The position numbers and the translations under genes were made by a program. A stretch of 64,000 nt of DNA. Source: an uncultured bacterium. GTDB lineage: Bacteria > Eisenbacteria > RBG-16-71-46 > CAIMUX01 > WJJG01. Below, piece after piece: positions 4,569 through 43,693 of this stretch. Where the stretch lies: assembly GCA_964506245.1 (NCBI GenBank), contig CAZDKK010000001.1, positions 289-64,288 of the forward strand. The letters run 5' to 3'. Each line of letters starts with the position of its first letter. Position 1 is the stretch's first letter. The notes under the pieces were generated by a model. The model had not been told where the DNA came from. It did no database searches and saw only the letters and a list, made by a program, of their open reading frames with translations.

Positions 4569-4571
4569 GGT

Positions 4572-19800: not shown

Positions 19801-19996
19801 GTCCCCGGGGCCTGACGTCCGGAACGGCAATCCGCGGGCGCTGCACGAGGAGGTTCTGCGGCTCGAGCGACGCCTGGTGTCGGAGACGCTGACCGCGACG
19901 GGTTGGAACCGGGCCGAGACCGCCCGGCGCCTGCGCATCAGCTATCCGACGCTGCTGACCAAGATCAAGGTGTTCGGGCTGACGCCGACGCGGTGA
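16808..19996 (+). CDS. Large sigma54-dependent transcriptional activator with N-terminal TPR repeats and a GAF domain (1062 aa)
   Basis: TPR-like helical repeats over residues 40-470. A GAF-like segment, then an AAA+ sigma54-interaction domain (ILITGETGTGKGLLA, ESELFGHVAGSFTGA GAFTGA-variant, FLDEIG, RELIQVV). C-terminal Fis-type HTH (GWNRAETARRLRISYPTLLTKIK). Confidence 0.85.
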   Translation: MAEANRERNGTTRGPGAKGPHEASGAPPGGLREEMDRLVQVAELHLAADDTQAALEVLRRAEGLAVEGQADPAWTAGMKIRLADCLRGRGEFSAALEQVQQAIDLIADQGDGIVRGKALARAASLHVRLGDYASAQECASTAYELLRTTGEHAEIGTLELTLGTIHMRTGQVRRSQEFFESALFTFRRIGHREGTAKALNNLGILLKNGPRWKDALDYLRQTLAISEEMGNAGNIAMHCGNLGVLYSKMCDWKEAERALVRGISTCKEIGNSFTATCCHLAQGNLQRRRGRYARAAESYAQARQLAEQNKYGREIVLCWECEGDLLADEGKLDEARAHLERALEMARAVAPRGDLTPEIERRLAAIALRKGEAAEAERLTTRAYRGARQVGDNVEAGAALRILGDAYARQGKHAAASRVLQRAVEILGQTPDAYELALARISWGRCLGRPEAAKPHGDGHGQRLKAADQLQRAIEFFLSVELTGQAAEAVVELAEVRAGQRDLEGALRDIARGRSLAEQADRRDVIERLDRARAALETQSAEVAVLKSPEVEIIQDWSRFFSEGGADEVRLEGMLRFALERLESSRALLAAPAAPGGQPAVVAKVGLQDGQGDAILRAILPHVESRGLILAGGIAHDPRFASEAEGAFAGVRSFASLSLSLPEGKGVLYIDRRAGGSSVFGRGDLRVLSVVSGLLGLGLIQIRRERELQAQRQEREHPVRTGPLADYVTQDAEVLRVFAQLERVGDSTASILITGETGTGKGLLAQCIHRASARRDGPFITVNCAAIPETLLESELFGHVAGSFTGARADKRGLFEEAERGTLFLDEIGRTSLTVQAKLLHALDTHKIRRVGATRDHAVDVRVVCASNTDLLDAIRRGTFLEDLFYRLSDFTVHLPPLRERPGDIPLLLNSFYDRVCHELGRKPAGLDAEVRKLLLEHTWRGNIRELIQVVRRMVALSLDGERITADLLPRELLGTAAQPEPAPVRSPSPPDEGVPGWSPGPDVRNGNPRALHEEVLRLERRLVSETLTATGWNRAETARRLRISYPTLLTKIKVFGLTPTR

Positions 19997-25996: not shown

Positions 25997-28276
25997 TCAG
26001 GACCAGGGCAGCCCCAGCCTTTGCCAGACCGATTCCCCGTCGGGAATGCGTCCGGGCTTGAGGTGCCGGTAGGTCGTGAACAGGAACCAGGCCAGCGGGG
26101 TCACCCCCAGACCGATGATGACCAAGTCGGGCAGCAGCCGGATCTGGCCCAGGAACTTCACCATGGGACGCTCGAAGAAGGCGGCATCGCGCGCAGCCCA
26201 GATCCCCTCGCGGAAGCTCGTCCAGGCCTGAGCAATGCCGACCGGGAAGAGCGTGATCAGCACCATCAGCAGCAACCCCACGTTCAGACCGAAGAAGGAG
26301 ACCCTGAGCAGCCGATCGTTCCAGTACTGCTTCTCCACCAGCCCGCGCCAGGAGAAGAGCAGCAGGGCGATCGACAGCATGCCGTAGGTGCCGAAGAGCG
26401 CCGCGTGACCATGGTTCATCGTCAGGTAGGTGCCGTGCTCGAAGTAGTTGACGATCGGGAGATTGATCAGGAATCCGAAGACCCCGGCACCGAGGAAGTT
26501 CCAGAAGGAAGAGGCCACGAGGAAGTAGAGAGGCCAGCGATACGGGAATTCCCGTCCCTCTTTGCGGATCGACTTGTACTCCATCAAGCCGCGCACGACG
26601 ATGCCGAAGAGCGGCACCGGTTCCAGCGATGAGAAGACCGCCCCCAGGCCCAGCCAGAGAGACGACCCACCGTACCAGAAGTAGTGGTGGGCGACGCCGA
26701 CGATGCCGCTCAGGAAGACGATCGTGGCCGTGAAGTAAGAGACGACCAAAGCATCGCGCGCCGAGGCGAGACCCATGGTGACCAGCAGCACCGAGATCAC
26801 GGCCACGCCAAAGAACTCGAAGATGCTCTCGACCCAGATGTGCACGACGAACCAGCGCCAGTAGTCGGCAACGCTCAGGTGCGTTCCGCGCCCATAGAAG
26901 AGGCCGAAAGCGAAGAAGGCCACGACCAGGATCGCGCTGAAGACATAGAAGGCGACGAGCTGGTGGAACTCGTCGGTGGAGGCCCGGCGCAGGCTGCCCG
27001 CCACGGCGCGGTAGACGATGGCGAGCCAGGCGAGCAGGCCCACGAAGAGCAGGATCTGCCAGAGTCGACCCAGCTCCAGGTACTCCCAGCCCTGATGTCC
27101 GAGCCAGAACCACCAGTTCCCCAGACCGCCTTTGATTCCGGCCACCTCCCCGATCAAGCTGCCGCCTGCCACGACCAGAATCGCGGCGAACAGGAGCTGG
27201 ACCAACAGGCCCTGCCGGCGGGGTTCGCGGCCGCCGACGATGGGCGCGAGGTAGATGGCGGATGCCACCCAGGTCGTGGCAATCCAGAAGATCGCGAGCT
27301 GCAGGTGCCAGGATTTCGCCCAGCTGTAGGGAATCAGGGACGCCACCGCCGGGATGTAGAAGCGCGAGGGGTGAACGGTGTAGTGGGCCAAGAGACCGCC
27401 GAACGAGGTCTGCACGAGGAAGAGCAGGATGACGACCAGGAAGTACTTGGCGGCCTTCTGCTGGCTGGAGGTGAGCGGCATGTCGATCAGCTTCTCGGCC
27501 AGCGGCACCCCCTTGCTCGGCCCGTACCAGATCTTGTAATAGTGCACGAGATAGATGAACAGGCCCAGGATCAAGAACAGCGCCAGGATTCCACCCAGCG
27601 TCCATAGATAGACTTCGCTGGTCGGCGCATTGCCGACGCTCGGATCCGGCGGCCAGTTGTTCGTGTAGCTGTAGTTCTTGTCCGGGCGATTGGTCGAAGC
27701 GGCCCAAGCGGTCCAGAAGAAGAAGCAGGCGATCTGCCGGCGCTCCTCCGGCGAGACGATGGTATTGGGCAGGAACCCGTAGTCCGAGTTGCCCGCGCCG
27801 AAAGTCTCTTCCCAGAAGCGTTCGTTTGCGGCGATGGCGTTGGCCTGCGCGACGGTCAGTCGCAGAGTGCCCGTACCCGGGTCGTAGCGGTTGGTCCTCA
27901 TCTCCGTGCGGACCTTGAGGTCGAGAATCCGGCGCTGCTCATCCCGGAGCTGGTCCACCGGGAACCCGTAGATCTCCTGGCAGAGCTGCGCGCGAATCTC
28001 CGTCCCGAGCAGGTGCACCGTCACCGCGGAGAACTCCATCCCGCGCTGGGAACCGTGGCCCCAGACGCTGCCGTGGTCCATCAGCCCGTAGCGCTGATAG
28101 ACGTCCTGGCCGGCCAGGATGTCGGCGCGGGTGATGAGGGCACGGCCCTCGGGCGCCATCACCCGTTCGGGGTAGGGGGGCACCTGACGGTTGGCGGACA
28201 GGCCGCCGATCAGCAGGATGGCCATGGCCGAGAAGAAGGCCAGGATGGCCGCCCACTTCAACTTGGTCAGAGACAT
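25997..28276 (-). CDS. norZ: Quinol-dependent nitric oxide reductase (qNOR, single-subunit NorZ/NorB type)
   Basis: ATG at 28276 with a GAGGAGG RBS. N-terminal TM plus a periplasmic NorC-like extension, then a heme-copper oxidase subunit-I-like core with 12 or more TM helices and conserved His ligands (HHYFWYG, NHGHAALFG). Total 760 aa. Confidence 0.9.
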   Translation of the reverse strand: MSLTKLKWAAILAFFSAMAILLIGGLSANRQVPPYPERVMAPEGRALITRADILAGQDVYQRYGLMDHGSVWGHGSQRGMEFSAVTVHLLGTEIRAQLCQEIYGFPVDQLRDEQRRILDLKVRTEMRTNRYDPGTGTLRLTVAQANAIAANERFWEETFGAGNSDYGFLPNTIVSPEERRQIACFFFWTAWAASTNRPDKNYSYTNNWPPDPSVGNAPTSEVYLWTLGGILALFLILGLFIYLVHYYKIWYGPSKGVPLAEKLIDMPLTSSQQKAAKYFLVVILLFLVQTSFGGLLAHYTVHPSRFYIPAVASLIPYSWAKSWHLQLAIFWIATTWVASAIYLAPIVGGREPRRQGLLVQLLFAAILVVAGGSLIGEVAGIKGGLGNWWFWLGHQGWEYLELGRLWQILLFVGLLAWLAIVYRAVAGSLRRASTDEFHQLVAFYVFSAILVVAFFAFGLFYGRGTHLSVADYWRWFVVHIWVESIFEFFGVAVISVLLVTMGLASARDALVVSYFTATIVFLSGIVGVAHHYFWYGGSSLWLGLGAVFSSLEPVPLFGIVVRGLMEYKSIRKEGREFPYRWPLYFLVASSFWNFLGAGVFGFLINLPIVNYFEHGTYLTMNHGHAALFGTYGMLSIALLLFSWRGLVEKQYWNDRLLRVSFFGLNVGLLLMVLITLFPVGIAQAWTSFREGIWAARDAAFFERPMVKFLGQIRLLPDLVIIGLGVTPLAWFLFTTYRHLKPGRIPDGESVWQRLGLPWS

Positions 28277-28323
28277 TGCAGCCTCCTCGCTGGCGGGGCC
28301 CCTTGCTGGGCGCCCCCCAAGGT

Positions 28324-28728
28324 TCACGGTTGGATCCGGAAGTCCGTCAGCCTGGTCTCGGACAGGTGCTTCATGATCTCGGCCCATACGTTCTCGAAGA
28401 CCGCTGCGAAGACGCACTGCCCCGGCCCGCAGATGGGATGGCCCAGCAGGCACCGGGGCGGGGCCAGCGGGCCCTCGATCGCCTCCAAGACCTCGCGCAC
28501 GGAGAGCTGCCGCGGGTCGACGGCTAGGCTGAATCCGCCGGCCGCGCCGCGGGTGGACTCGAGGAACCCGGCGCTGACCAGTCGATGGAGCACCTTGGCC
28601 ACGTGAGACTCGGAGCAGCGCAGCCGGCCCGCGATGTCGGGTGCCGAGAGACGCGCGTCGGGACCGGCGGCGGCGATATAGGCCAGGGCATGGATGGCCA
28701 GGTTGGACGCCTCGGAGAAGGAGAGCAC
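28324..28728 (-). CDS. nsrR: Rrf2-family transcriptional regulator, NsrR-like NO sensor
   Basis: GTG start at 28728 with a GGGAGG RBS. Rrf2 wHTH (LSFSEASNLAIHALAYIA...SHVAKVLHRL) and a three-Cys cluster (CLLGHPICGPGQC) for Fe-S binding. It sits directly upstream of qNOR on the same strand. Confidence 0.8.
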   Translation of the reverse strand: MLSFSEASNLAIHALAYIAAAGPDARLSAPDIAGRLRCSESHVAKVLHRLVSAGFLESTRGAAGGFSLAVDPRQLSVREVLEAIEGPLAPPRCLLGHPICGPGQCVFAAVFENVWAEIMKHLSETRLTDFRIQP

Positions 28729-28748
28729 GAGACCTCCCTGGGTTAATC

Positions 28749-28779
28749 CCGAATTCGGAGTCAGAATACAGGAATTTCC
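28749..28779. promoter_or_regulatory. Candidate operator palindromes in the nsrR upstream region (CCGAATTCGG and GGAATTTCC)
   Basis: A perfect 10-bp palindrome and a 4-1-4 palindrome lie 20-50 nt upstream of the nsrR start. No match to a characterised NsrR box is claimed. Coordinates are approximate. Confidence 0.2.
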
Positions 28780-28814
28780 CCTGGGGCACAATGGCGGGTG
28801 AGGCCGCTGAGCCA

Positions 28815-29576
28815 TCAGGCGCAGCCGGTGGCTAGCCAGCATGCCCAATCGGGACGCCCGTTGCGCAGCGCACTCTGGGCGGCCGCGGGCCAGTCATAGG
28901 CCACAGCGACCGGCTCGACGTTCCAGCCGTCCGGCGCATGCGACAGGATGGCGTAGCGAGCGTGCGGCGTGCCGGCTGCCATCGCGTGGGCGTGCGGATC
29001 CTGGTCGCGGTAGGCGGGCAACCCGACGCTGCCGGGGTTCACGAGGCGCCGGCCGCCTGGCAGGGTCAGCGAGTAGGGCAGGTGATCGTGACCACACAGC
29101 ACGATGCTCGCGCGGACACTCGCCAGCCGCCGTTCCAGGTCCACGGCCGTGCGTCTGACGGCGCCCTTCGGGGTGATGTCGTGGAGGAGGTAGGCATCAT
29201 CCCGCTCGGGCGTACCGTGACAGAGGAGCAGCCCGTTCTCCAGGGTCAGCGTGAGGGGAAGACCCGACAACCAGGCGAGGTGCTCCGGCTCCAGCTGGCG
29301 CAGAACGTACCCCACCGTTGCCGGATGGGATCCTGCGGCGCCGGGCTCGCAGAGCCTGCGGTCCTCGTTGCCGCGCACGGTCGGCTGATCGTGGGCCATC
29401 AACAGGCGAATCGTCCCGGCCGGGTCCAGGGGACCATAGACGCAGTCCCCGAGGTTCACGTAGCCGGCGATGCCACGCCGCGAGAGATCGTCCAGCACCG
29501 CCTCGAAGGCCCAACGGTTGCCGTGGATGTCGGACAGGACGGCGAGGCTGAAGTCGCGACACTGCGAAACGTCCAC
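28815..29576 (-). CDS. Calcineurin-like metallophosphoesterase
   Basis: MPP motifs DIHGN, GDCVYGP, GNED, GHDH (SDIHGNRWAFEAV..., LCGHDHLPY). Confidence 0.8.
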   Translation of the reverse strand: MDVSQCRDFSLAVLSDIHGNRWAFEAVLDDLSRRGIAGYVNLGDCVYGPLDPAGTIRLLMAHDQPTVRGNEDRRLCEPGAAGSHPATVGYVLRQLEPEHLAWLSGLPLTLTLENGLLLCHGTPERDDAYLLHDITPKGAVRRTAVDLERRLASVRASIVLCGHDHLPYSLTLPGGRRLVNPGSVGLPAYRDQDPHAHAMAAGTPHARYAILSHAPDGWNVEPVAVAYDWPAAAQSALRNGRPDWACWLATGCA

Positions 29577-29706: not shown

Positions 29707-30066
29707 TCAGGTGATTCCCAGCTCGGTCAGACGTGCGCGGGCCTCGGCCTCGGTTTCCCGCACGTTCAGCACACCCTCCAGACCGACGATGCCCATGACG
29801 CAAAGCACCCGGGGCGAACAGCTGTACACCGACATGGCTCCCCCGATCTGCTGTGCACGCGCCAGCAGGCGCACCAATATGCCGATGCCGCCGCTGCTCA
29901 TATATCGTACGCCGCTCATGTCGATGAGAAGGGCTGGCGCCCCCGGGCCTACCCGATCCGAAACCCCGTCCCACAATGCAGCCGCGCCGAGCGCATCGAG
30001 GTTCCCCTCAAGCCTCACGCGATGGCAATGCTTGAGTTCCGTGTCCCGTTCACAGACCACGCGCAT
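29707..30066 (-). CDS. STAS-domain anti-sigma-factor antagonist (SpoIIAA-like)
   Basis: 119 aa with the conserved phosphorylatable-serine region (LLIDMSGVRYMSSGGIGILV). Confidence 0.8.
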   Translation of the reverse strand: MRVVCERDTELKHCHRVRLEGNLDALGAAALWDGVSDRVGPGAPALLIDMSGVRYMSSGGIGILVRLLARAQQIGGAMSVYSCSPRVLCVMGIVGLEGVLNVRETEAEARARLTELGIT

Positions 30067-30229
30067 CGCTCAGGCCTCCCCAGCCGCTCACCCGATGCGG
30101 AAATCCGCATCCTGTGAAGGAAAAACCCCCCGCATCTTCCTCGGAAGTCCGCACCGCACCGCCGGCCGCCCCTGGGGCATCCTGCCCCAACCATCCCAAT
30201 CTGCACCGCTTAGTTGCGGCCTCTCGCGG

Positions 30230-30246
30230 AGGAACGATACTTGCAC
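30230..30246 (+). promoter_or_regulatory. Candidate sigma54 (-24/-12) promoter upstream of the octad-repeat protein gene
   Basis: aGGaACG-N4-TTGCA, with the GG and GC elements 12 nt apart as in the consensus TGGCACG-N4-TTGCA. The -12 element TTGCA is perfect. It lies about 85 nt upstream of the ATG at 30332. A receiver-less sigma54 EBP gene is adjacent. Confidence 0.35.
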
Positions 30247-30331
30247 TCCCCCAGGCCAGATCCAGCGCTTCCTGCGATGGATCTGGGTTGAGACAGGAAG
30301 CTACCCGTTAATCCTAAGCAAGGAGGTCGCC

Positions 30332-30940
30332 ATGTCCACTCATTCGTTCAAGCGCCCCACCACCGTTGCTTCGGAGGCGTGTCCGCCCCCTGCAGGAGCG
30401 ACGACCACCGGTGCAGCAGCCATCACTCCCGAGGAGTTTGAGAAGCTCACCCCGGAGCAGATCGCCGCCCTCACGCCCACGCAGATTCGGGCTCTGAGCC
30501 CGAAGTGCTTGTCGCGCCTGAGCCCCAAGCAAGCTGCCTCCCTCACGCCGAAGTGCTTGGTGACGCTGGCCCCGAAGCAGGTTGCCACCATCGCCCCCAA
30601 GTGCTTTGCGACCCTGGCCCCGCGGCAGTTCGCCAGCATCGCCCCGAAGTGTCTGGCGACGCTGGCCCCGAAGCAGATTGCGAGCGTGGCCCCCAAGTGC
30701 TTTGCGACGCTGGCCCCGAGGCAGTTCGCCAGCCTCGCCCCGAAGTGTCTGGCGACGCTGGCCCCCAAACAGGTCGCGAGCGTCGCCCCGAAGTGTCTGG
30801 CGACGCTGGCCCCGAAGCAGTTCGCCAGCCTCGCCCCGAAGTGTCTGGCGACGCTGGCCCCCAAGCAGGTCGCCGCGCTCGCCCCGCGCCAGGTGGCCGC
30901 GCTGTCGCCCCGGCAGGTCGCGGCCCTGCCGATGGGCTAG
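30332..30940 (+). CDS. Cys/Pro-containing octad tandem-repeat protein (203 aa); no family assignment, candidate substrate/precursor of the adjacent module
   Basis: ATG at 30332 with an AAGGAGG RBS. After a 38-aa N-terminus the rest consists of 20 consecutive 8-residue repeats L-[ATS]-P-[KRET]-[QC]-h-[AS]-x, alternating LAPKCLAT / LAPKQVAS, and ends in LPMG. Confidence 0.7.
   Translation: MSTHSFKRPTTVASEACPPPAGATTTGAAAITPEEFEKLTPEQIAALTPTQIRALSPKCLSRLSPKQAASLTPKCLVTLAPKQVATIAPKCFATLAPRQFASIAPKCLATLAPKQIASVAPKCFATLAPRQFASLAPKCLATLAPKQVASVAPKCLATLAPKQFASLAPKCLATLAPKQVAALAPRQVAALSPRQVAALPMG
30446..30925 (+). repeat. Tandem repeat of about ten 48-bp units (20 x 24-bp half-units) inside the CDS, encoding the octad repeats
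   Basis: Near-identical units gccccgaagtgtctggcgacgctggccccgaagcagttcgccagcctc are read directly in the sequence. Confidence 0.85.
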
Positions 30941-30943
30941 AAG

Positions 30944-30959
30944 GCAGAGACGTCTGCCC
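30944..30959. terminator. Short hairpin (ggcaga-gacg-tctgcc) between convergent genes; possible bidirectional terminator
   Basis: A 6-bp stem with a 4-nt loop immediately after the repeat-protein stop. No U-tract follows, so it is weak. Confidence 0.2.
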
Positions 30960-30994
30960 GGAACGGGGGGCTCTCGCAGCGGGAGTCCCCACGT

Positions 30995-32251
30995 TCATTC
31001 CTTGCGCTCGATGACCTCGGACAGCCTCAGCAGGTCTTCCCGATAGGCCTGGGGCAGCTTGGCGAACGCCTTGCGCAGCGCGATCATCCGCCTTCCAGGA
31101 CTGTTCCCACCGCGCTCCCAAGCGCGGATCGCCACGCGCAGTGTCTGCCCCAATTTGCGCTGCACCAGCGGAGCCAGAGACGGATCACCGGCCAGGCCGA
31201 GGGCCGCAGCCTCCAGGTTGCCGCGCTCCGCGGCGAGTGCGCGGAATCCCTCGCCCGCCAGGTAGTAGGTCAGACCGCTCCGGGAACAGACTGGAACGCT
31301 GCGCCGGGGAGAGGTGCGCCGTCGAGCGGTAAGCATGCGTTCTGCCAGCGCGATGTTGAAGTGGTACACGCGCAGCTGCTCGATCACCCAGGCACCGACC
31401 TCGCTGCCGGGCTGGAGGCGGGGGGAGCTGGCCAACCCATCACTTGGTGGAGCGTCCGAGAGCCGGTGGCGCGCGAAGACGGCGGAGACGTGCCGATCGT
31501 GGATCTCCTGGCCGCGCGCTTCAATGAGCAGCGCGCTCACGATGTTTTGAAGCTCGCGCACGTTCCCTGGATAGGCGTAGGCGAACAGGCGGCGCAGCGC
31601 AGCCGGATGGACGGGCGGGCAGGGCCCCCCGAGCTGCGCCGATCGTTCTCTGAGGAAGTGGTTGATCAACAGAGGAAGGTCTTCCCGCCGTTCGCGGAGC
31701 GGCGGCAGATGCAGCGGAAAGACGGCCAGACGGTAGTAGAGGTCACGCCGAAACTCCCCATTGCGAACCGCCCGTTCCAGGCTGCGATTGGTCGCGGCCA
31801 CCACACGCGCCTCGGTCTTGAGCTGTCGCTCCCCACCGACCGGCAGAAAGACGCCGTCCTGCAACACGCGCAGGAGACGGACCTGCGCGGAGGGAGACAT
31901 CTCGGCAATCTCATCCAGGAAGACGGTTCCGTGACCTGCGCGCTCGAACAGCCCCCGATGGGCGCGCACCGCGCCCGTGAAAGCCCCGGGCACGTGGCCG
32001 AAGAGTTCGCTCTCCAGCAGAGACTCGGGAATCGCCCCGCAGTTGATGGTCTCGAAAGGCTGCCGGTCGCCGCAGGAGATCTCGTGCACAATCGTCGCGA
32101 TCAGCTCCTTGCCCGTTCCCGACTCGCCTTCCAGCAGTACGGGGCAGTGCACCGCGGCTACCTTCGCGACATCCTCGAGAACCGCGCGAATGACCGCGCT
32201 CTCTCCCACACAGCGGAGAAACGCCGGATGTTGCGTCTCGCTCGGGGCCAT
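30995..32251 (-). CDS. Sigma54-dependent transcriptional activator lacking a receiver/sensor N-domain (AAA+ domain plus C-terminal DNA-binding region)
   Basis: ATG at 32251 (MAPSETQHPAF). Motifs LLEGESGTGKELIA, ESELFGHVPGAFTGA (GAFTGA), FLDEIA, RELQNIV. Putative Fis-like HTH, then an extra C-terminal region of about 90 aa. Confidence 0.85.
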   Translation of the reverse strand: MAPSETQHPAFLRCVGESAVIRAVLEDVAKVAAVHCPVLLEGESGTGKELIATIVHEISCGDRQPFETINCGAIPESLLESELFGHVPGAFTGAVRAHRGLFERAGHGTVFLDEIAEMSPSAQVRLLRVLQDGVFLPVGGERQLKTEARVVAATNRSLERAVRNGEFRRDLYYRLAVFPLHLPPLRERREDLPLLINHFLRERSAQLGGPCPPVHPAALRRLFAYAYPGNVRELQNIVSALLIEARGQEIHDRHVSAVFARHRLSDAPPSDGLASSPRLQPGSEVGAWVIEQLRVYHFNIALAERMLTARRRTSPRRSVPVCSRSGLTYYLAGEGFRALAAERGNLEAAALGLAGDPSLAPLVQRKLGQTLRVAIRAWERGGNSPGRRMIALRKAFAKLPQAYREDLLRLSEVIERKE

Positions 32252-32400
32252 GGGGTGCGTGACCCCCCATCTGTCTCTCGGTAACCGCGCAGCCGCCACG
32301 CTGTCACGTCGGCCACGGTCGGGAGCCGCAACCTCCGTCGAGGTCACCGTCCCGTTTGCGGAGCCCGCCGGTCGATCGCGGGCCGTGAGGAAATGCCGCG

Positions 32401-33216
32401 ATGCGTTTCCGCGCTGCGAGGACCAAGCCGCAGTGGGCGTTCCTGCTGTCCCTGGGCCTGCTGGCGGCATCATCGCCGGCGCCCGCGCAGTCAAGCGCGG
32501 CGCCGGCGGACACGGATGGCGATCCGAGCCTCTCCGCCGATTCGCGCATCTTTCCCGGCATCCTGCTGCCGGCCAGCACAGCCCTGATCAAGGCCCCGCG
32601 CGACGAGAGGATCGCATCGGTCGCGGTCCACGTCGGTGACGTCGTGAGGAAGGGACAACTCCTGATCGAGCTGGTGGCCGACGAAGAACGCGTGACCCAA
32701 GGACGCGCAGCGGCGGTGCTCGAGCAGGCGCGGGACGAGCTCGACCGCGTGCGGCGGCTGTCCGCGGAACACCTGACCTCCGACGAGGCCCTCGAGGTGG
32801 CCGAGACCGCCTACCGGATCGCGCGCGCCGATCACGAGCTGGACTCGCTGCGCTACGCGGAATCCTCGATCCGGGCCCCCTTCGACGGCGTGGTCGCGGA
32901 GCTCCGCGTGGACCCTGGAACATCGGTCGAGACCGGTGACAACCTGGTGCGCGTTGCCTCCAGGTCGCTGCTGCGCCTGGAGGTTCTGCTCCCCGAGGAG
33001 ATGCTGCCAGCCTTCACCGTCGCGACGGTGGTGGAGGTGCAGCCCACCCATCCCGACACGACGCTCCACTTGCCGGTGTACGCACGTCCGCTGGTGGTGG
33101 ACCCGAGCAGCGGCACGTTTACGCTGGAGATCGAGGTCCCCAACAAGGCTGGGCGCCTGATTCCTGGTGTAAGCTGCCAGGTGAGCGTGCGAACAGCGTC
33201 GGGCGATGCACCGTGA
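32401..33216 (+). CDS. Short periplasmic HlyD-family membrane-fusion/adaptor protein (biotin-lipoyl-like plus beta-barrel)
   Basis: Signal peptide. Lipoyl-like hairpin motifs (ILLPASTALIKAPRDERIASVAVHVGDVVRKGQLLIEL... IRAPFDGVVAELRVDPGTSVETGDNLVRVAS). TGA overlaps the GTG of the next gene. Confidence 0.75.
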   Translation: MRFRAARTKPQWAFLLSLGLLAASSPAPAQSSAAPADTDGDPSLSADSRIFPGILLPASTALIKAPRDERIASVAVHVGDVVRKGQLLIELVADEERVTQGRAAAVLEQARDELDRVRRLSAEHLTSDEALEVAETAYRIARADHELDSLRYAESSIRAPFDGVVAELRVDPGTSVETGDNLVRVASRSLLRLEVLLPEEMLPAFTVATVVEVQPTHPDTTLHLPVYARPLVVDPSSGTFTLEIEVPNKAGRLIPGVSCQVSVRTASGDAP

Positions 33217-35273
33217 ACCCTGCGCGGGTCTACCAGCTCCGCCACGACCTGGTCATTCGGCGGCGCGTCTTCGGCGAATCGGTCAAGTACTTGGTCAAGG
33301 ACCCGCAGCGCCTCGAGTACTACACCATCGACGAGTGGACCTACCAGCTGCTCTCCTTGTGCGATGGCCACCGCGACCTGGGGGCGCTGAGCGCCGCTGC
33401 CCGTGAACGTCTTCCGGACATGGACCTGAACCCGTTGACGATTCTGGAGTTCTGCGAGACCTATCGGCGTTTCCACTTCTTCGAGGACAGCTGGGAGCGG
33501 AATATCCTGCTGATCGAGCAACGCCGCGGCTCGCGCCTGAAGCGCTTGCGCAAGGCATTCGCCAACCCGCTCGAGATCCATCTGCCAGCCTGGGACCCGG
33601 ACCTCTTCTTCAGCCGCATCGTCCGGCCCCTGGGTTTCCTGTACACGCGATCGGCGCTGGTGGTCTACGCCACACTGATCCTGCTGGCGATCTGGCTCTC
33701 CGCCACCCACGCGGATGAGTTCGCGCTGTCCTTCCGGGAGCTGTGGGTGATTCCCGGGAAGACGGGCTTGGGCCTGATCGCGCTGTGGGCGGCGCTGCTC
33801 CTGACCGTCGTGATGCACGAGGTCGGGCATGGCCTGACCTGCAAGCACTACGGCGGCGGCGTCCACAAGATCGGCTTTCTCCTGCTCTACTTCAATCCCT
33901 GCATGTTCTGCGACGTGACCGAGAGTTACTTCTTCGATGACCGGCGCAAGAAGCACGCGGTGACCCTGGCGGGCGGACTGGTCGATCTGCTCACCGCCGC
34001 GGCCGCGACGTTTGTCTGGTACTTCACGGTGCCGGATCTCTTCCTGAACGCCGTGGCCCACCGGGTGGCGATCTTCAACGGCGTGACGGGCATCTTGGTC
34101 AACTACAATCCGCTGATGAAATACGATGGTTACTTCCTGTTCAGCGATCAGCTCGGGATCCCGAATATGCGGGGCGAGTCGTTCCACTTCCTGGGCAACC
34201 GCGTCCGCGGGCTCTTGCGACTGCCGCACGAGGAGGAGCTGGTCTCCGCGCGCGAGCGCCGGATCTTCTGGATCTACGGGATCTGCGCGTTCGCCTACAG
34301 CGTCTTCGTGCTGTGGTTCGTCCTGCGCTTCGTCGGGGGGTGGCTCGTGCATCTCCTCCGGGGCGCCGGGTACGTCCTGACCGCCGCGTTGCTGTTCCTG
34401 ATGACCAAGGGCTACTCGCGCAGGCTATTCGGCTTCGCGCGTTTCGTGGCGCTGGACAAGGGCGGGCATTTCCGCCGCTACCGGGTGCCCTACCTGGCGG
34501 GACTGGCGGCAACGCTGGCCGCGCTCTTCCTGCTGCCCGTCCCGCGCCACGTGCGGGGGGAATTCGTGCTGCACCCGGGGAGCGAGGTCGTGGTGCGGGC
34601 CGAGGTGACAGGCGTGATCGAGTCGGTGCATGCTGACGAGGGGGATCGCGTGGCCGCGGCAAGCACACCGGTCGTGCTGCGCGCCGAGAACGTGATTCTC
34701 GGGGTGGAGGAAGCGCGCAGCCTGCGGCAGTCGGCCGGGGCGCAGCGCGCCGCAGCGCAGGTCGCCGGGGAGCCAGCCGCCGCGGTGGCTGCTGCGGCCA
34801 GGATGACCGCTGGGCAGGCGCTCGAGCATTACTACCGCTCCCGCGAGGTGTATCTGCGCCCACCGGCGCCGATCAGCGGCATCGTATTGACGCCCCGCCT
34901 GCGCGAAAGGGTCGGTCTGGCGTACGTTCCGGGAGACACCCTCTACGTGGTCGGCGAACTGGGCACGCTCCGCGCCGAGGTTCTCCTGGACGAACGTGAC
35001 ATGGGGCTGTTGACCCCCGACCAGCCGGTAGAACTGCGCACGCGCGCGACCGCGGGGCAGAGGCTCCTGGGTCACATCGAGCAGATCTCCCAGGAGCCTT
35101 CGGCCCTGCGGACTCGGCCGCTCTACCGGGTCGTCGTGCGCGTCGAGAACCCGGAGGAGATCTGCCGGCCGGGGCAAGAGGGCGTGGCCCGGTTCGCTGC
35201 GGGAAGGCTCTCGTTGATCGGTCATGCTCTGTCTGGGCTGGCCCGGACGTTCCGGATCGAGTTCTGGGTGTGA
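33213..35273 (+). CDS. Tripartite fusion: N-terminal PqqD-like RRE domain, membrane M50 (site-2 protease type, HExxH) metalloprotease, C-terminal HlyD-like domain
   Basis: Residues 5-95 follow the PqqD/RRE pattern (RVYQLRHDLVIRRR...YYTIDEWTYQLLSLCDGHRDLGAL...LTILEFCETYRRFHFF). Multi-TM core with HEVGHGLTCKHYGG. C-terminal HlyD-like beta-barrel/lipoyl motifs (VRAEVTGVIESVHADEGDRV..., VVRVENPEE..RPGQEGVARF). Confidence 0.75.
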   Translation: MNPARVYQLRHDLVIRRRVFGESVKYLVKDPQRLEYYTIDEWTYQLLSLCDGHRDLGALSAAARERLPDMDLNPLTILEFCETYRRFHFFEDSWERNILLIEQRRGSRLKRLRKAFANPLEIHLPAWDPDLFFSRIVRPLGFLYTRSALVVYATLILLAIWLSATHADEFALSFRELWVIPGKTGLGLIALWAALLLTVVMHEVGHGLTCKHYGGGVHKIGFLLLYFNPCMFCDVTESYFFDDRRKKHAVTLAGGLVDLLTAAAATFVWYFTVPDLFLNAVAHRVAIFNGVTGILVNYNPLMKYDGYFLFSDQLGIPNMRGESFHFLGNRVRGLLRLPHEEELVSARERRIFWIYGICAFAYSVFVLWFVLRFVGGWLVHLLRGAGYVLTAALLFLMTKGYSRRLFGFARFVALDKGGHFRRYRVPYLAGLAATLAALFLLPVPRHVRGEFVLHPGSEVVVRAEVTGVIESVHADEGDRVAAASTPVVLRAENVILGVEEARSLRQSAGAQRAAAQVAGEPAAAVAAAARMTAGQALEHYYRSREVYLRPPAPISGIVLTPRLRERVGLAYVPGDTLYVVGELGTLRAEVLLDERDMGLLTPDQPVELRTRATAGQRLLGHIEQISQEPSALRTRPLYRVVVRVENPEEICRPGQEGVARFAAGRLSLIGHALSGLARTFRIEFWV

Positions 35274-35350
35274 GGCGCCGGTGACTGGCGCGACCTTGCC
35301 TTCGGTCGCGTCGGGTCCCGGACCGTGAAGCGGAGAGCCCCGCAGCGGGG

Positions 35351-37453
35351 ATGGGTGTCATGAAAGACCCCAACAGCGTGTCGGGCGAGGCCAGGGACAG
35401 AGAGTTGGAGGCCCTCTACACCCAGGTGGTGCAGAACGCCGCTCGTCTCATGGTCGTCCATGAGGCGAGCAGCATCCTGCGGTCCACGCACGACCCAGAA
35501 GAACTGGCGCGCGGTCTCCTGACCACGGTGACCGAGGCGGTCCTGGCCGGCTCGGGGTGTGTCGCCGGCCTGGAGGGCGATGAGCTGAAGGTCCTGGCCA
35601 CCAGCGGTCTGACGGATGAGGAGGTGGAAACCCTCGCTGCTAACGCGAGCGAGGCTCAGGCCTGGTTCGCAGTGGCCGATGGCGAAGATCCGCAGACACG
35701 CCAGCAGCTCACCGAGGTGCTGGGCTTCGCGGTGGGTGAGTCAGCCGAGAGTGGGGAGGACGATGGAGACGCTCCGGATGAGCCCGAGTGGCGCGGGGAG
35801 GCCGACGACGAAGAACCCGAGTCCTACGAGCACCTGTGGGACGAAGCCGAGGAGGCGGCCGAGTCCGAGCCTGCAGCGGGGGGATCGGAGTTCGGTCCAT
35901 CCGCCGCGCCCGCCTTCGAGCTCTACCTTCCCCTGCGCGTGGAGGACGAGGTGCTGGGGGTGCTCGTCCTCGGCCCGCGCGTGGACGGACAGGAGTACCG
36001 CGAAGACGATGTGCAACTCGCCCGGTCGCTCTCCGCACACCTGGCGCTGGCCCTCAACCACGCGGCCCTCTTCGCCGAGCGCAGTCGTCGCATCGAGCAG
36101 TTGTCGGTCCTGCTTCGGATATCCCGGGAGATCACGAGCACCCTCGACCTTGATCGCGTTCTCCAGACCGTCGTCCAGATGATGGCCTTGGTCGTCCCCA
36201 ACCGGAGGTCCGTGCTGGCCCTGACCTCGGCCCGCGGCGTCTCGCTCCGGGCCAGCTCGGATCCCTCGTTCCAGCCCAAGGAGGTCAGCCGCGATTCCAT
36301 CCTCCCCATCCTGCAGTGGGCCCAGGATGCGCGCCAGCGCATCAACACCCACCGTGCCGCGCTGGAGCAAGACGCCGAGGCCGAAGGCCGGGATCTGCTT
36401 CTGCCGTGGCTCAGCCGAGAGCGTGGACCGCGTGGGTTGGCGGTGATGCCCCTCGAGGACGATCAGGGCGTGCTCGGACTGCTCGCGATCGAGACCGACA
36501 GCGACGCCATGCCCCTGGACGAGAACCACGAGGAGCTCGTCAGCATCCTTGCCAACCAGGCGACGGTCGCGGTCCGCAACGCTGAGCTCTACCAGCAGGT
36601 TCCGATGATCGGCTTCCTCGAGCCGATCCTGGGCAAGGTGCGGCGCGCGCGCGCGGCGGGGTCACGCCGGCTGCTGATCCGGGCGGGGGTCGTGATGGCG
36701 ATCCTGGCCGCCGGTTTCCTCATTCCGATCCCCGCGTGGGTCTCGGGTGATGCCCAGCTACGGCCATTCGCGCCGATCGCTTTGCGCGCCGGGACAGAGG
36801 GTACCGTCGATGAAGTGCTGGTCCGCGAGGGTCAGTCGATCCGGGCCGGGACCGTGGTCGCGCGCTTGCGCCGCGATGAGTTCGAGGTCGAGCTCGAGCA
36901 GACCCGCGCCGAGACCCGCCGGGCCCAGGCCGAGGCGGCCCAGGCGCGGATCGCTGGCGATCTCGCCACGTATCGCGCCCGCCAGGCGAAGCTCGGCGAG
37001 CTGACGCGGACGGAGCAGTTCCTGGTCTCCGAGCTCGAGCGCACCGAGCTGGTGGCGCCCTCCGACGGCGTTGTTCTCACGCAGGATGTGGAGCGACGCC
37101 AGGGCGCCCACCTGCGACCCGGCGAGACCCTGCTCGAGCTGGCCGATCTCGCCACGATGGAGGTAGAGGTCTCCCTCGCGGGGCACGACATCCGGTCCAT
37201 CGGTCAGGGAAGCCGCGCGCGGCTCAAGGTGCAGGCCTACCCCGGTCGCACGTTCCGGGGCGAGGTGACACGCATCGCGCCGAGGTCGGACCGCGACGGG
37301 ACCTTTCGGGTGACGATGCGACTGCCCAACACGGACGGGGCGCTGCGTCCTGGCATGACTGGGCGGGCTCACGTGGAGATTCCCGGGCGCCCAGCGCTGG
37401 TCTCCCTCTTCGCACCGGTTGTGCGCCGGTTGCGGCTGGGGCTCTGGCTGTGA
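35351..37453 (+). CDS. GAF-domain(s)-HlyD fusion protein: cytoplasmic GAF sensor region, one TM helix, periplasmic HlyD-type domain
   Basis: GAF-like segments (LYLPLRVEDEVLGVLVLGPR...; second: VLALTSARG...GLAVMPLEDDQGVLGLLAIETD...ATVAVRNAELY). TM (LLIRAGVVMAILAAGFLIPIPAW). HlyD features (coiled coil EVELEQTRAETRRAQAE..., LVAPSDGVVLTQDVE..GAHLRPGETLLELAD, MTGRAHVEI). Confidence 0.7.
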   Translation: MGVMKDPNSVSGEARDRELEALYTQVVQNAARLMVVHEASSILRSTHDPEELARGLLTTVTEAVLAGSGCVAGLEGDELKVLATSGLTDEEVETLAANASEAQAWFAVADGEDPQTRQQLTEVLGFAVGESAESGEDDGDAPDEPEWRGEADDEEPESYEHLWDEAEEAAESEPAAGGSEFGPSAAPAFELYLPLRVEDEVLGVLVLGPRVDGQEYREDDVQLARSLSAHLALALNHAALFAERSRRIEQLSVLLRISREITSTLDLDRVLQTVVQMMALVVPNRRSVLALTSARGVSLRASSDPSFQPKEVSRDSILPILQWAQDARQRINTHRAALEQDAEAEGRDLLLPWLSRERGPRGLAVMPLEDDQGVLGLLAIETDSDAMPLDENHEELVSILANQATVAVRNAELYQQVPMIGFLEPILGKVRRARAAGSRRLLIRAGVVMAILAAGFLIPIPAWVSGDAQLRPFAPIALRAGTEGTVDEVLVREGQSIRAGTVVARLRRDEFEVELEQTRAETRRAQAEAAQARIAGDLATYRARQAKLGELTRTEQFLVSELERTELVAPSDGVVLTQDVERRQGAHLRPGETLLELADLATMEVEVSLAGHDIRSIGQGSRARLKVQAYPGRTFRGEVTRIAPRSDRDGTFRVTMRLPNTDGALRPGMTGRAHVEIPGRPALVSLFAPVVRRLRLGLWL

Positions 37454-37462
37454 ACCAGGTCC

Positions 37463-38029
37463 CTACATGAAGCGCTCGAACCGGTCTTGCTTCGCCTTGC
37501 AGATCGGACAGATCAGCGGGGGCTTCTCCCGGGCGCACAGGTACCCGCAGACGCGGCAGCGCCACACCGGCAGCGTTGGTTCCGCTCGCTCCGCCGCTGC
37601 GGCCAGGCGCTGGGCCGGCCCCGGTGTGCCGGCGTCCGCAGGCCGTCGCTCGGGAATCGGGGCGGGCTTCACCTCGCCCGCCAGGACGCGGTCCGAGACG
37701 TAGAGGGCGCAGAAGCAGGCGTCGAACTCGTCGAGGTCCGCGTCCCGGTAATCGCACGGGCAGATGATGTCACGGTCGATCTCCTGATTGCCCTCGGCCA
37801 AGCGGCACGGACAGGCCCAATAGCCGTAGCGGGCTTCGTTGACGAGCAGACCACGCACCAGGTCGCGTGTGAACTCGAGGTCGGGGTTCAGGTGGTATCC
37901 CGCGGCCTCAGCCTCTCGCTGCAGGCGCGCGTGGAGCGCCGCGGTGCGCTCTGGCGTGACAGAGCCGGCAGCGTCGTTCGGGCGCGGATCGCCGGAGTTG
38001 CCCCGGCCGGGTGTTGCGGGATCACGCAT
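37463..38029 (-). CDS. Ferredoxin:thioredoxin-reductase-like catalytic subunit fused to a C-terminal rubredoxin-type zinc ribbon (FDR-like ferredoxin:disulfide reductase)
   Basis: FTR catalytic cysteine pattern CPC-x15-CPC-x11-CFC (WACPCRLAEG...IICPCDYRD...DACFCALY). C-terminal CxxC...CxxC rubredoxin-like motif (WRCRVCGY...LICPICKA). It overlaps the upstream glutaredoxin gene by 8 nt. Confidence 0.75.
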   Translation of the reverse strand: MRDPATPGRGNSGDPRPNDAAGSVTPERTAALHARLQREAEAAGYHLNPDLEFTRDLVRGLLVNEARYGYWACPCRLAEGNQEIDRDIICPCDYRDADLDEFDACFCALYVSDRVLAGEVKPAPIPERRPADAGTPGPAQRLAAAAERAEPTLPVWRCRVCGYLCAREKPPLICPICKAKQDRFERFM

Positions 38030-38309
38030 CGTCCAGTGCCTTTCGGATCTCGTCCTCCTTCATCCCGACGATCACGCGCTCGTCCCGAATGACGATCGTG
38101 GGGTAGGAGGTGCTGGGATTCCAGCGGCGCAGGTCATGAAGGGCTTCCTCCCGCAGCTGGTGATCCAGGAGATCCACGTCGATGTACTCGTAGGCCACTC
38201 CGAGGCTGTCGAAGAAGCGCTTCGTCATGCGGCACCAGACACAGGTGCTGAGCGTGTACAGGAGAATCCTGCCTCGATCCTCGCCCGCCACGCGGGTCGG
38301 CTCGATCAT
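38022..38309 (-). CDS. Glutaredoxin-like small thiol-disulfide oxidoreductase (CxxC)
   Basis: 95 aa with a thioredoxin-fold active site TCVWCR (ILLYTLSTCVWCRMTKRFFDSLGVAYEYIDVD). Confidence 0.8.
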   Translation of the reverse strand: MIEPTRVAGEDRGRILLYTLSTCVWCRMTKRFFDSLGVAYEYIDVDLLDHQLREEALHDLRRWNPSTSYPTIVIRDERVIVGMKEDEIRKALDDA

Positions 38310-43460: not shown

Positions 43461-43693
43461 CCCACCGGGCCGGGGCGGGCAGCGCCGTGACGCCACGGGG
43501 CGCGGCGGGCGGTTCTGTCCCGCCGGGTCGCTCGATCTCCCCACGAGTCCGAGGATCTCGTGATATCATTGTCCCCGGCCCGGTTGCCCAATCGAGCCGC
43601 CGGCGGCAGCGGAACGCCGCCGGCCGTGACGGCCTCACTGCCCGGTGACCGAGATGGGTCGCGCCGGCGGTGACCGCTCTGCAGGAGGTGTGC

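Follow-up and report, generated by a model that had tools for sequence, protein, structure and literature searches.

Does a predicted leader-guided membrane protease that is fused to a periplasmic adaptor and encoded beside a sigma-54-controlled repeat protein represent a chance neighbourhood, or one copy of a conserved system for processing and exporting peptides? This question arose from a cluster in a 64,000-nucleotide stretch of DNA from an uncultured bacterium of the Eisenbacteria clade (the window). A sequence-only reading had described the cluster as a candidate undescribed peptide-processing and export module, comprising a STAS protein, a Cys octad-repeat protein, a sigma-54 enhancer-binding protein (EBP) without a receiver domain, and three HlyD-type proteins, one fused to an RRE and an M50 protease and another to GAF. 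All six genes were found where that reading placed them and its domain calls hold, so the observation is confirmed with small corrections. The features are as follows.

29707-30066 (-): STAS-domain protein (119 aa), anti-sigma-antagonist type, with the phosphorylatable Ser retained (YMSSGG)
30230-30245 (+): sigma-54-type -24/-12 promoter element AGGAAC-N5-TTGCA, 101 nt upstream of the repeat-protein ATG
30332-30940 (+): candidate cargo or precursor of 202 aa, with a 30-aa N-terminal region and then 21 octads L(A/T/S)P(K/R)(Q/C)xxx
30995-32251 (-): sigma-54 enhancer-binding protein (418 aa)
32401-33216 (+): small periplasmic adaptor, HlyD/RND_mfp type (271 aa), with a signal-peptide-like N-terminus
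33213-35273 (+): RRE, M50/site-2 protease and adaptor fusion (686 aa)
33234-33482 (+): RRE (PqqD-like) domain of the fusion, residues 8-90, beta3-alpha3 winged helix, predicted cytoplasmic
33630-34532 (+): M50 membrane core of the fusion, about 7 TM helices, with HEVGH at 33816-33830 and NPLMKYDGY at 34107-34133
34533-35270 (+): periplasmic adaptor domain of the fusion, with lipoyl, a 27+28-residue alpha-hairpin and a beta-barrel
35351-37453 (+): GAF-GAF-TM-adaptor fusion (700 aa, or 697 aa from ATG 35360, the start used by gene callers)

The regulatory genes were examined using profile searches. The STAS protein matched Pfam STAS at 5e-13 and scored 57.3 against TIGR00377, above the cutoff of 53.45, and the DSSG serine is invariant in 47 of 47 aligned module STAS proteins. 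No cognate anti-sigma kinase or PP2C phosphatase is present in the window cluster; an FHA-GAF-SpoIIE phosphatase lies next to the operon in only one related locus (L005). The EBP matched Sigma54_activat (PF00158) at 4.2e-63 and contains the GAFTGA loop (GHVPGAFTGAV). Homology to its orthologue starts 5 residues after the start codon (the alignment to the orthologue of related locus L002 begins at ORF residue 87), so the protein has no N-terminal sensor or receiver domain. Its last 151 aa form a clade-specific C-terminal region, conserved in 8 loci, which gave no Pfam (including HTH_8) or NCBIfam hit; a degenerate GN..AA..LG pattern is visible by eye only.

The repeat protein starts at ATG 30332 behind AAGGAGG and consists of 202 aa rather than the 203 aa given earlier, with 21 octads (not 20) plus LPMG. 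The DNA has a period of 24 nt and a 48-nt super-period of 8.1 copies at 30499-30886. The protein has no signal peptide and no TM segment, and passes the gathering score of Pfam ALTTAQ_rpt (PF20080; 35.8 against 26.4 bits), whereas the orthologue in related locus L009 scores 98.1 bits (2.1e-28). Orthologues occupy the same module slot in related loci L002, L003, L004, L005 and L009. Cys occurs in 9 of the 21 octads, where PKC alternates with PKQ/PRQ, but is absent from all four orthologues examined; therefore, the Cys character stressed by the sequence-only reading is not a family feature. The -24/-12 element has two mismatches, and matches that good are common by chance in this window alone. 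It is supported by comparison, since all five Eisenbacteria orthologues carry GG-N10-GC elements 73-108 nt upstream.

The three adaptor genes had been described as translationally coupled. The GTGA overlap at 33213-33216 is real, but only the first two genes overlap and the third follows a 77-nt gap. All three proteins hit HlyD_3, HlyD_D23 and TIGR01730 (2.5e-34 for the small adaptor). In the third protein, hits to GAF, GAF_2 and GAF_3 cover two stretches and HlyD_D23 matches at 3e-24; the GAF domains are cytoplasmic, one TM segment lies at residues 442-460, and the adaptor is periplasmic. The earlier statement that no ABC, RND or MFS gene accompanies the adaptors holds for the cluster and its flanks, which encode qNOR, Rrf2 and a metallophosphoesterase on one side, and an FTR-rubredoxin fusion, glutaredoxin, GNAT and DUF4097 on the other. 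No TolC/OEP outer-membrane factor was found among the window ORFs scanned, which leaves its presence undecided because not every ORF of the 64 kb was scanned and the rest of the genome is unseen.

The identity of the fused domains had been named in advance as a point on which the interpretation could fail, and was tested in the 686-aa protein. An AF2 model of the N-terminus (pLDDT 86.9) showed strands 14-20, 23-30 and 35-40 followed by helices 41-48, 56-66 and 74-85. A Foldseek search returned RREs as the top nine PDB matches (probability 0.95-1.00, TM-score up to 0.66), led by TbiB1 with bound leader (probability 1.00), then PqqD, CteB and a lasso B1 protein; this structure search confirms the RRE fold. 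Sequence evidence was mixed and does not settle the PqqD match: the window protein had no hit to Pfam PqqD (PF05402) at E <= 0.01, and its N-terminal profile reached PqqD in the PDB only at E = 0.93, whereas 13 of 64 homologues hit Pfam PqqD (best 1.4e-5) and the homologue in related locus L023 hit TIGR03859 at 3.9e-5. Leader binding by the domain was not measured here. For the protease, HEVGHG lies at 33816-33833 and NYNPLMKYDGY at 34101-34133 (HEVGH at residues 202-206, NPLMKYDG at 299-306). H202, E203, H206, N297, P300, L301, D305 and G306 are invariant in 64 homologues, of which 61 hit Pfam Peptidase_M50, although the window protein itself scores only 18.3 bits, below the gathering score of 27.2. 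Residues 26-396 matched the NCBIfam daptide_HExxH model at 5.4e-51, and YydH/LiaK matched weakly at 1.3e-9. The adaptor domain gave profile hits to MacA and EmrA (4e-26), and in the AF2 model of the whole protein (pLDDT 84.8), with hairpin helices at 492-518 and 521-548, it superposed on TMexC, MacA, AcrA and MexA (down to 1.7e-14). Hydropathy analysis, with about 7 TM helices and a basic cytoplasmic loop, puts the RRE inside and the adaptor outside.

A survey of gene neighbourhoods, which the sequence-only reading had requested to see what co-occurs with the fusion, showed that the arrangement is far beyond chance. At least 597 species across about ten phyla carry a relative of the protease-adaptor fusion, and the RRE-protease part has 9755 cluster representatives. 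The same gene set recurs, in a different order, in dozens of genomes from other phyla. Of 50 fully flanked loci, 45 keep the GAF-adaptor, 46 have an EBP within 6 kb, 46 have a third adaptor ORF and 40 have exactly three adaptor genes. A STAS gene lies within 10 kb of the fusion in 57 of 88 loci. No transporter family is conserved with the module across 80 loci. It had also been stated beforehand that the reading would fail if the fusion proved common and always linked to a known pathway; the fusion is common, but it is linked only to its own module.

The slot that holds the repeat gene in the window holds, in other clades, small or large genes with a conserved N-terminal leader and mostly sigma-54 promoters. 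In Acidobacteriota, 32 peptide ORFs of 22-53 aa were found in 20 loci, none elsewhere in the 22-kb loci, with a conserved 18-aa N-terminus (MAKKTLKKxKKLExTKPL) and a hypervariable tail; 23 of 31 of these genes carry a near-consensus sigma-54 site, against 0.9% of background windows. In Gemmatimonadota, locus L023 has six LEEKEAP units behind TGGCAC-N5-TTGCG. In Bdellovibrionota, Oligoflexia, Planctomycetota and SAR324, KKLE(E/D)RIAP begins acidic, Pro/Thr/Asp-rich repeat proteins of 771-2079 aa in seven loci. EELEERIAP peptides lie in tandem directly upstream of a subfamily of the fusion of ~810 aa, which has no other partner genes. A peptide of related locus L025 (MSKKLTPKVAP...) bridges the KKLEERIAP leader and the window octad LAPKQVAS. 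However, a leader HMM built from the LEERIAP family did not retrieve the window's repeat protein and retrieved the acidobacterial peptides only at E of 2-8; thus, the link between the window octads and the leader family rests on inspection and on the one bridging peptide. The repeat protein also had no detectable homologues in a large protein search, probably because of low-complexity filtering.

The RRE-protease half is of a known kind. The daptide leader peptidase MpaP/DapP (NCBIfam NF041824) has the same two-domain N-terminal architecture, with sequence homology over the whole 370-aa unit (7.8e-71 for the ~810-aa subfamily), and the daptide paper (bioRxiv 10.1101/2023.03.08.531785) states that the RRE is N-terminally fused to a site-2 protease, that the leader motif is ELExMEAP and that P is at position -1. 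The neighbouring leaders LEERIAP and LEEKEAP resemble this motif. The window protein nevertheless scores 173.9 bits, below the equivalog cutoff of 300, and carries the additional C-terminal adaptor. The daptide tailoring genes (the DUF-RRE protein MpaB, the decarboxylase, the aminotransferase and the methyltransferase) are absent from the cluster and from the 8 kb around it, the repeat protein ends in ALPMG rather than Thr, and the module occurs in Gram-negative phyla under sigma-54 control. Only the adaptor fusion and the module around it are undescribed in any library or paper searched.

Other systems share parts of this logic. The epipeptide proteases EpeP/YydH and LiaK (NF058609) are M50 intramembrane proteases dedicated to a small ribosomal peptide, and EpeP is thought to both cleave and export EpeX (PMC10885120), but they belong to a Firmicutes context; the window locus has no radical-SAM epimerase and no ABC genes, and they lack the adaptor fusion. 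In peptidase-containing ABC transporters with a HlyD accessory protein (double-glycine bacteriocin and NHLP exporters, TIGR03794-03797), an N-terminal leader is likewise recognised and removed by a protease that is physically part of the exporter and works with a membrane-fusion protein; however, that protease is a C39 cysteine peptidase on an ABC transporter that supplies the energy, and no C39 or ABC domain and no GG cleavage motif were found here. MacA, AcrA, MexA and EmrA share the lipoyl, alpha-hairpin and beta-barrel fold, whereas the module has three different adaptor genes, two of them fused to non-transporter membrane or cytoplasmic domains (M50, GAF), and no cognate pump. Multi-core RiPP precursors such as cyanobactin PatE also reiterate recognition-plus-core units in tandem, as do the 21 octads and the six units of L023, but cyanobactins use subtilisin-like proteases and heterocyclases, and no tailoring enzyme is present here; this comparison was not tested in the analysis. 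PspF, regulated in trans by PspA, and the STAS-plus-EBP locus SypA/SypE/SypG of Vibrio parallel the sensor-less EBP and the STAS protein, although no PspA and no SypE-like kinase or phosphatase is encoded in the window.

The interpretation offered by the sequence-only reading, a regulated cleavage-and-export machine with the adjacent repeat protein as a possible substrate, is supported in each part that could be tested. In the model that we favour, with moderate confidence, the sensor-less EBP and sigma-54 would transcribe the cargo gene, and the cargo would be made in the cytoplasm without a Sec signal. The cytoplasmic RRE would bind the leader-like motif of the cargo, whose family consensus is (K)KLExx(I/E)AP and which in the window is KLTPEQIAA, reiterated as the octads. 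The adjoining M50 protease would cut it, probably after the (I/L/V)(A/T/S)P of the motif, as MpaP cuts daptide precursors after EAP, and the product would pass into a periplasmic conduit built from the three adaptors, whose alpha-hairpins are of the TolC-docking kind. Because the cargo of the window is an array of 21 leader-like units, the likely products are many octapeptides of two kinds, KQxAxxAP and KCLATLAP. The GAF domains and the STAS protein probably couple the state of the apparatus, or a cytoplasmic signal, to EBP activity. The analysis itself demonstrates the domain identities, the intact catalytic motifs, the conservation of the module and the leader-bearing neighbour genes with their sigma-54 promoters; binding, the cleavage site, export, the oligomeric conduit and the regulatory loop are inferred, and no expression, cleavage or secretion data exist. 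The model is weakened by the absence of an energy-coupling component and of an outer-membrane channel in the module or conserved near it, since export of cargo up to 2079 aa then has no evident driving force.

Alternative readings were considered less likely. The adaptors may serve an ordinary inner-membrane pump (MacB-type ABC, RND or MFS) and a TolC encoded elsewhere, with the RRE-M50 domain only removing the leader, which would make the system a split, PCAT-like type I exporter. The structurally ordinary TolC-docking adaptors and the energy needed to export large cargo favour this view, and a Dpp-like ABC ATPase lies more than 5 kb away in 22 of 80 loci; however, this ATPase is of the importer (Dpp/Opp) type and is restricted to related Acidobacteria, no transporter family is conserved with the module across phyla, and the ~810-aa subfamily has only the fusion gene and its peptide genes. 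This reading appears unlikely. A signalling device without export, in which regulated proteolysis yields intracellular modulators of the EBP, STAS or GAF components and the adaptor domains act as periplasmic sensors or scaffolds, appears somewhat less likely still. Site-2 proteases classically act in signalling, the module carries three regulatory elements (the EBP, STAS with a conserved phospho-Ser, and GAF), and an EBP lacking its own sensor needs a trans-acting regulator. Nevertheless, the large repeat proteins of extracellular character, the hypervariable peptide tails typical of secreted products and the conduit fold of the adaptor with its hairpin argue otherwise, and loci from Bdellovibrionota and Oligoflexia keep the three adaptors and the cargo but have no EBP or STAS.

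It is least likely that the repeat protein is no substrate at all, but an unrelated sigma-54-regulated structural or nucleoid-associated protein that merely neighbours the regulator, with the true substrate encoded elsewhere. The failure of the leader HMM to detect it, the variation of its Cys residues and repeat sequence between orthologues, and the general nature of the ALTTAQ repeat family agree with this possibility. Conversely, its gene keeps its place in the module in all six Eisenbacteria-clade loci despite rearrangement of gene order, it occupies the slot that holds leader-bearing genes in every other clade, and its octads share the (I/L)(A/T/S)P-(K/R) pattern with the L025 leader KKLTPKVAP and the EAP-R units of L023. 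A bolder reading, doubtful but not excluded, is that the module is a previously unrecognised envelope-spanning secretion pathway that works without an ABC, RND or MFS motor. In this view, an RRE would read an N-terminal (K)KLExxxAP-type leader, a site-2 protease would cut it in the membrane, and a hetero-oligomeric tube of three different adaptors would pass outward cargo ranging from octapeptides to 2000-residue disordered adhesin-like proteins, while the GAF-adaptor and STAS report the state of the apparatus back to the sigma-54 activator. In the window, such a pathway would turn a 21-unit poly-leader protein into two families of secreted octapeptides, one of them bearing Cys, that could act as signals.

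The region at 29707-37453 has a G+C content of about 68% and was found to contain six genes, with a strong AAGGAGG ribosome-binding site in front of the repeat-protein gene. The genes were located as follows:
29707-30066, minus strand: STAS protein
30332-30940, plus strand: repeat protein of 202 aa
30995-32251, minus strand: sigma-54 enhancer-binding protein (EBP)
32401-33216, plus strand: first HlyD-type adaptor (HlyD1)
33213-35273, plus strand: second HlyD-type adaptor, the middle protein (the fusion)
35351-37453, plus strand: third HlyD-type adaptor

The gene set and domain composition proposed in the sequence-only reading held, with small corrections. The claim that all three adaptor genes are translationally coupled was rejected, because only the first two overlap (in GTGA) and the third starts 77 nt after the second ends. 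The view that Cys residues define the repeat family was also rejected, because they are absent in orthologues and occur only in the copy of the window. Long ORFs antisense to the real genes, up to 499 aa (including those at 32853-34352, 34425-35225 and 30340-30864, minus strand), have no family hits and are the usual artefacts of high G+C content that should not be annotated. A 499-aa ORF with a TTG start was considered as the true EBP and rejected, because homology starts at residue 87 and the longer ORF would overlap the HlyD1 start. A sigma-54 element upstream of the adaptor operon (32252-32400) was sought by eye and not found.

The flanking genes are unrelated to the cluster. On one side, at 25997-29576 (minus strand), they encode a quinol-type nitric oxide reductase (NorB cytochrome-c-like domain plus COX1), followed by an Rrf2-family regulator and a metallophosphoesterase, which looks like an NO-detoxification unit directly abutting the module. 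On the other side, at 37463-38309 (minus strand), a ferredoxin-thioredoxin-reductase (FTR) catalytic domain fused to a rubredoxin-like domain translationally overlaps a glutaredoxin gene, an unusual redox pair. A GNAT-SCP2 protein and DUF4097 are also encoded on that side. The possibility of a pump hidden in the flanks was rejected: no ABC, RND or MFS transporter or OEP gene lies next to the cluster, and none was found among the large ORFs scanned elsewhere in the window.

The middle protein was analysed domain by domain. Residues 441-686 are an ordinary periplasmic adaptor, with profile hits to MacA and EmrA reaching 4e-26, an AF2 model of mean pLDDT 84.8 containing a 27+28-residue alpha-hairpin, and Foldseek hits to TMexC, MacA, AcrA and MexA reaching 1.7e-14. 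Residues 140-440 are an M50 core of about seven helices. A core that did not prove to be M50 had been named in advance as evidence against this assignment; however, HEVGH (33816-33830) and NPLMKYDGY (34107-34133) are present, the metal-binding residues are invariant in 64 homologues, and Pfam Peptidase_M50 matches 61 of these 64. The N-terminal region had likewise been singled out for structural modelling, and residues 8-90 were predicted to fold as three strands plus three helices (pLDDT 86.9). The nine best PDB matches are all RiPP recognition elements (RREs), namely TbiB1 with bound leader, PqqD, CteB and a lasso-peptide B1 protein. Structure comparison was needed, because a sequence profile of the N-terminal 100 aa against PDB sequences was not significant for PqqD (E = 0.93), although 13 of 64 homologues hit Pfam PqqD directly. 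Hydropathy and the basic loop before the first helix place the RRE in the cytoplasm and the adaptor in the periplasm, which is an inference.

Residues 26-396 match the NCBIfam model for the daptide intramembrane metalloprotease at 5.4e-51, which is below its equivalog cutoff. This enzyme, MpaP, has been described as an RRE N-terminally fused to a site-2 protease, which removes a leader with the motif ELExMEAP and has Pro at position -1 (bioRxiv 10.1101/2023.03.08.531785). The RRE-protease half is therefore of a known kind, whereas the fusion to an adaptor is not described. Assignment of the locus to a daptide cluster was rejected, because the score is below the cutoff, tailoring enzymes are absent and the precursor is of the wrong type.

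The third adaptor carries two cytoplasmic GAF domains and one TM segment, and the second GAF domain resembles the regulatory GAF of NifA (7e-4). The EBP has the AAA+ core with GAFTGA and no sensor domain, since homology with its orthologue starts five residues after the start codon, and its 150-aa C-terminus has no HTH_8 hit. The STAS protein passes the anti-sigma-antagonist model and keeps the phosphorylatable serine, which is invariant in 47 of 47 module-linked STAS proteins. In one Eisenbacteria genome (locus L005 of the survey), an FHA-GAF-SpoIIE (PP2C) phosphatase (3744-5417, minus strand) is divergently adjacent to the adaptor operon and is a candidate partner for this phospho-serine.

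The protein search found more than 400 full-length relatives, labelled 'putative peptide zinc metalloprotease protein' by JGI and HlyD-family adaptors by NCBI. A scan of one genome per species found at least 597 species with a relative (at least 599 matched stretches, of which the best 80 were kept). The closest are Candidatus Eisenbacteria (62% and 57% identity), so the window probably comes from that phylum; the rest are mainly Acidobacteriota, and others are Planctomycetota, Binatia, Gemmatimonadota, Oligoflexia/Bdellovibrionota, Chlamydiales, Zixibacteria, SAR324, Eremiobacterota and Limnocylindrales. A phmmer search with the RRE-protease half against 1.84 billion representatives gave 9755 hits at E <= 1e-3 and 1380 at E <= 1e-30, and most of the best 150 are of adaptor-fused lengths.

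A survey of gene neighbourhoods, which had been proposed beforehand to determine whether the repeat protein, the EBP or a pump co-occurs with the fusion, showed the same gene set in a different order. The survey covered 88 loci, 50 of which had full flanks.

Table. Partners of the fusion gene in fully flanked loci (of 50).
GAF-adaptor: 45
EBP: 46
Exactly three adaptor ORFs: 40
Four adaptor ORFs: 5
STAS within 6 kb: 32

In Acidobacteriota the EBP has a receiver domain, and a histidine kinase is adjacent in 20 of 80 loci. All-against-all clustering of neighbouring ORFs found no other broadly conserved family and, in particular, no pump.

The cargo genes beside the module are the main new result. 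In Acidobacteriota-type loci, the gap between the fusion gene and the EBP gene holds one to three unannotated genes of 22-53 aa, which all lie on the EBP strand, have strong Shine-Dalgarno sequences, and are uncalled in public annotation. They encode MAKKTLKK(A/S/G)KKL(E/G/Q)xTKPL (acidobacterial leader, MAKKTLKKSKKLEATKPL) followed by a hypervariable tail, and some tails repeat xPLM. A motif scan of all six frames of all loci found 32 such ORFs in 20 loci and none outside that gap. A near-consensus TGGC(G/A)-N-TTGCA element lies 57-76 nt upstream of 23 of 31, against 0.9% of random 110-nt windows from the same loci. In Gemmatimonadota, locus L023 has TGGCAC-N5-TTGCG followed by a 116-aa protein with six LEEKEAP units spaced by RRASVFGEEDAPM or RKGAL, and locus L033 is similar. 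In the ~810-aa subfamily, the fusion gene has no partner adaptors or EBP, and three tandem genes of 50-67 aa lie directly upstream, carrying the leader EELE(E/Q)RIAP(D/S) and Gly/Asn/Pro-rich tails.

The same motif, preceded by a Lys-rich stretch (KKLE(E/D)RIAPxM(V/I)GGG(I/V)(I/V)DPG), begins large proteins encoded inside the module in Planctomycetota (1491 aa), Oligoflexia (2079 and 1224 aa), Bdellovibrionota (831, 1574 and 1220 aa) and SAR324 (771 aa). These proteins are acidic, rich in Pro, Thr, Asp and Gly, and built of repeated modules, with no Sec signal and no Pfam domain; the Pfam hits obtained are low-complexity artefacts with no significant stretch. The motif regex matched only two ORFs away from any module, whereas our rough calculation predicts about four chance matches. 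The KKLEDRIAP start of the 1491-aa planctomycete protein (locus L014, 10957-15432, plus strand) recalls the LE(D/E)RxLL motif at the N-termini of many giant planctomycete proteins, a resemblance that was not checked. Another cargo type begins M..TI.LT..Q..QI..ATG (loci L008, 2744-2938, minus strand; L021, near 13234, minus strand; L082, 7908-8075, plus strand). In L082 it continues into EELEERIAP (MDPQKKDNIRINLTEDQKKEIRRQTGKEASAIEFTVEELEERIAPFAALDPKRAL), and leaders may be bipartite. The LEEKEAP and LEERIAP-type leaders resemble the published daptide leader ELExMEAP.

Searching for homologues of the repeat protein of the window in a collection of 5.8 billion proteins returned nothing, probably because of composition filtering, and orthologues were found by synteny instead. 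The orthologues (loci L002, L003, L004, L005 and L009) keep their place in the module although the gene order differs from the window, and all five loci inspected have GG-N10-GC elements 73-108 nt upstream. In L005, the public gene call of a 409-aa 'STAS' protein (10707-11936, minus strand) overlaps, on the opposite strand, the real 235-aa octad-repeat gene (11284-11988, plus strand; ISPKGIAA units) with its TGGCCC-N5-TTGCT promoter, which is a likely annotation artefact. The units are always eight residues, (L/I/V)(A/T/S)P(K/R)xxxx, but unit number changes quickly: two otherwise near-identical metagenome loci, L003 (14809-15675) and L004 (6729-7499), differ by 32 aa (four octads), 288 against 256 aa.

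The first units read KLTPEQIAA-LTPTQIRA in the window, and the equivalent position in the orthologues reads KLTxxEIAALTP. A second Eisenbacteria clade (locus L025) has, right after its GAF-adaptor gene, a 57-aa peptide beginning MSKKLTPKVAPRAK, followed by four SRGTVAT units. Its KKLTPKVAP matches KKLEERIAP at K, K, L, (K/R), (V/I), A and P, and differs from the window octad LAPKQVAS essentially by one inserted residue. We therefore read the window protein as a tandem array of leader-like units, comparable to the six LEEKEAP units of L023. This last step rests on inspection, because a leader HMM does not retrieve the window protein and retrieves the acidobacterial peptides only weakly.

The sequence-only reading had proposed regulated peptide cleavage and export with the repeat protein as a possible substrate, and the comparative evidence supports this interpretation. 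In the best-supported account, the EBP and sigma-54 would switch on the cargo gene, the RRE would bind the leader-like motif in the cytoplasm, and the M50 domain would cut next to it, probably after (I/L/V)(A/T/S)P, by analogy with MpaP. The product would then leave through a conduit made by the three adaptors, whose hairpins could dock a TolC-type channel. For the window, repeated cutting would give the octapeptides KQxAxxAP and KCLATLAP. The GAF domains and STAS probably regulate the sensor-less EBP or gate the apparatus. The genes, domains and conserved neighbourhoods come from the analysis itself, whereas every step of this mechanism is inferred and none has been observed. The absence of any energy source is the main weakness, especially for cargo of 2000 residues. 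An M50 enzyme acting as both cutter and exporter has been proposed for EpeP (PMC10885120).

Other explanations were considered. A conventional pump encoded elsewhere is compatible with most of the data but has no comparative support. A purely intracellular signalling role for the proteolysis is opposed by the extracellular character of the large cargo and by the clades that lack the regulators, and the conserved position and promoter of the repeat protein argue against it being a bystander.

No curated model was found for the fusion, NCBIfam has no model for any of the cargo peptides, and PADLOC gave no defence-system match for the module beyond the generic AAA+ core. Literature searches found no paper describing the fusion or the module. 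The parts have known relatives, namely MpaP, EpeP, PCAT plus HlyD exporters and MacA-type adaptors, from which the module differs in the adaptor fusion and the gene set around it, and there is a substantial chance that it is a distinct secretion pathway.

If this reading is right, a very large family (9755 cluster representatives at 50% identity), which is especially common in Acidobacteriota, one of the most abundant and least understood soil phyla, has a testable function, whereas it is currently annotated only as 'HlyD family adaptor' or 'putative peptide zinc metalloprotease'. It would represent a new way of coupling leader removal to export in diderm bacteria and an example of sigma-54 control of peptide production. 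It would also provide families of candidate secreted peptides, never annotated because they are 22-60 aa long, that could be signals or antimicrobials, and a candidate secretion signal for large orphan repeat proteins of predatory bacteria and Planctomycetota. The finding also extends the RRE-site-2-protease pairing, so far known from daptides in Gram-positive bacteria, to Gram-negative phyla.

Elsewhere in the window, a second sigma-54 enhancer-binding protein of 1062 aa (16808-19996, plus strand), with a long TPR (MalT-like) N-terminal region, a normal HTH_8 and an unknown target, shows that the organism uses sigma-54 widely. An M14 carboxypeptidase with a CarboxypepD_reg domain and a C-terminal FlgD_ig domain (43670-46687, plus strand) and a 1400-aa GH38 alpha-mannosidase with CHB_HEX_C and PA14 domains (8850-13052, plus strand) are both probably secreted enzymes.
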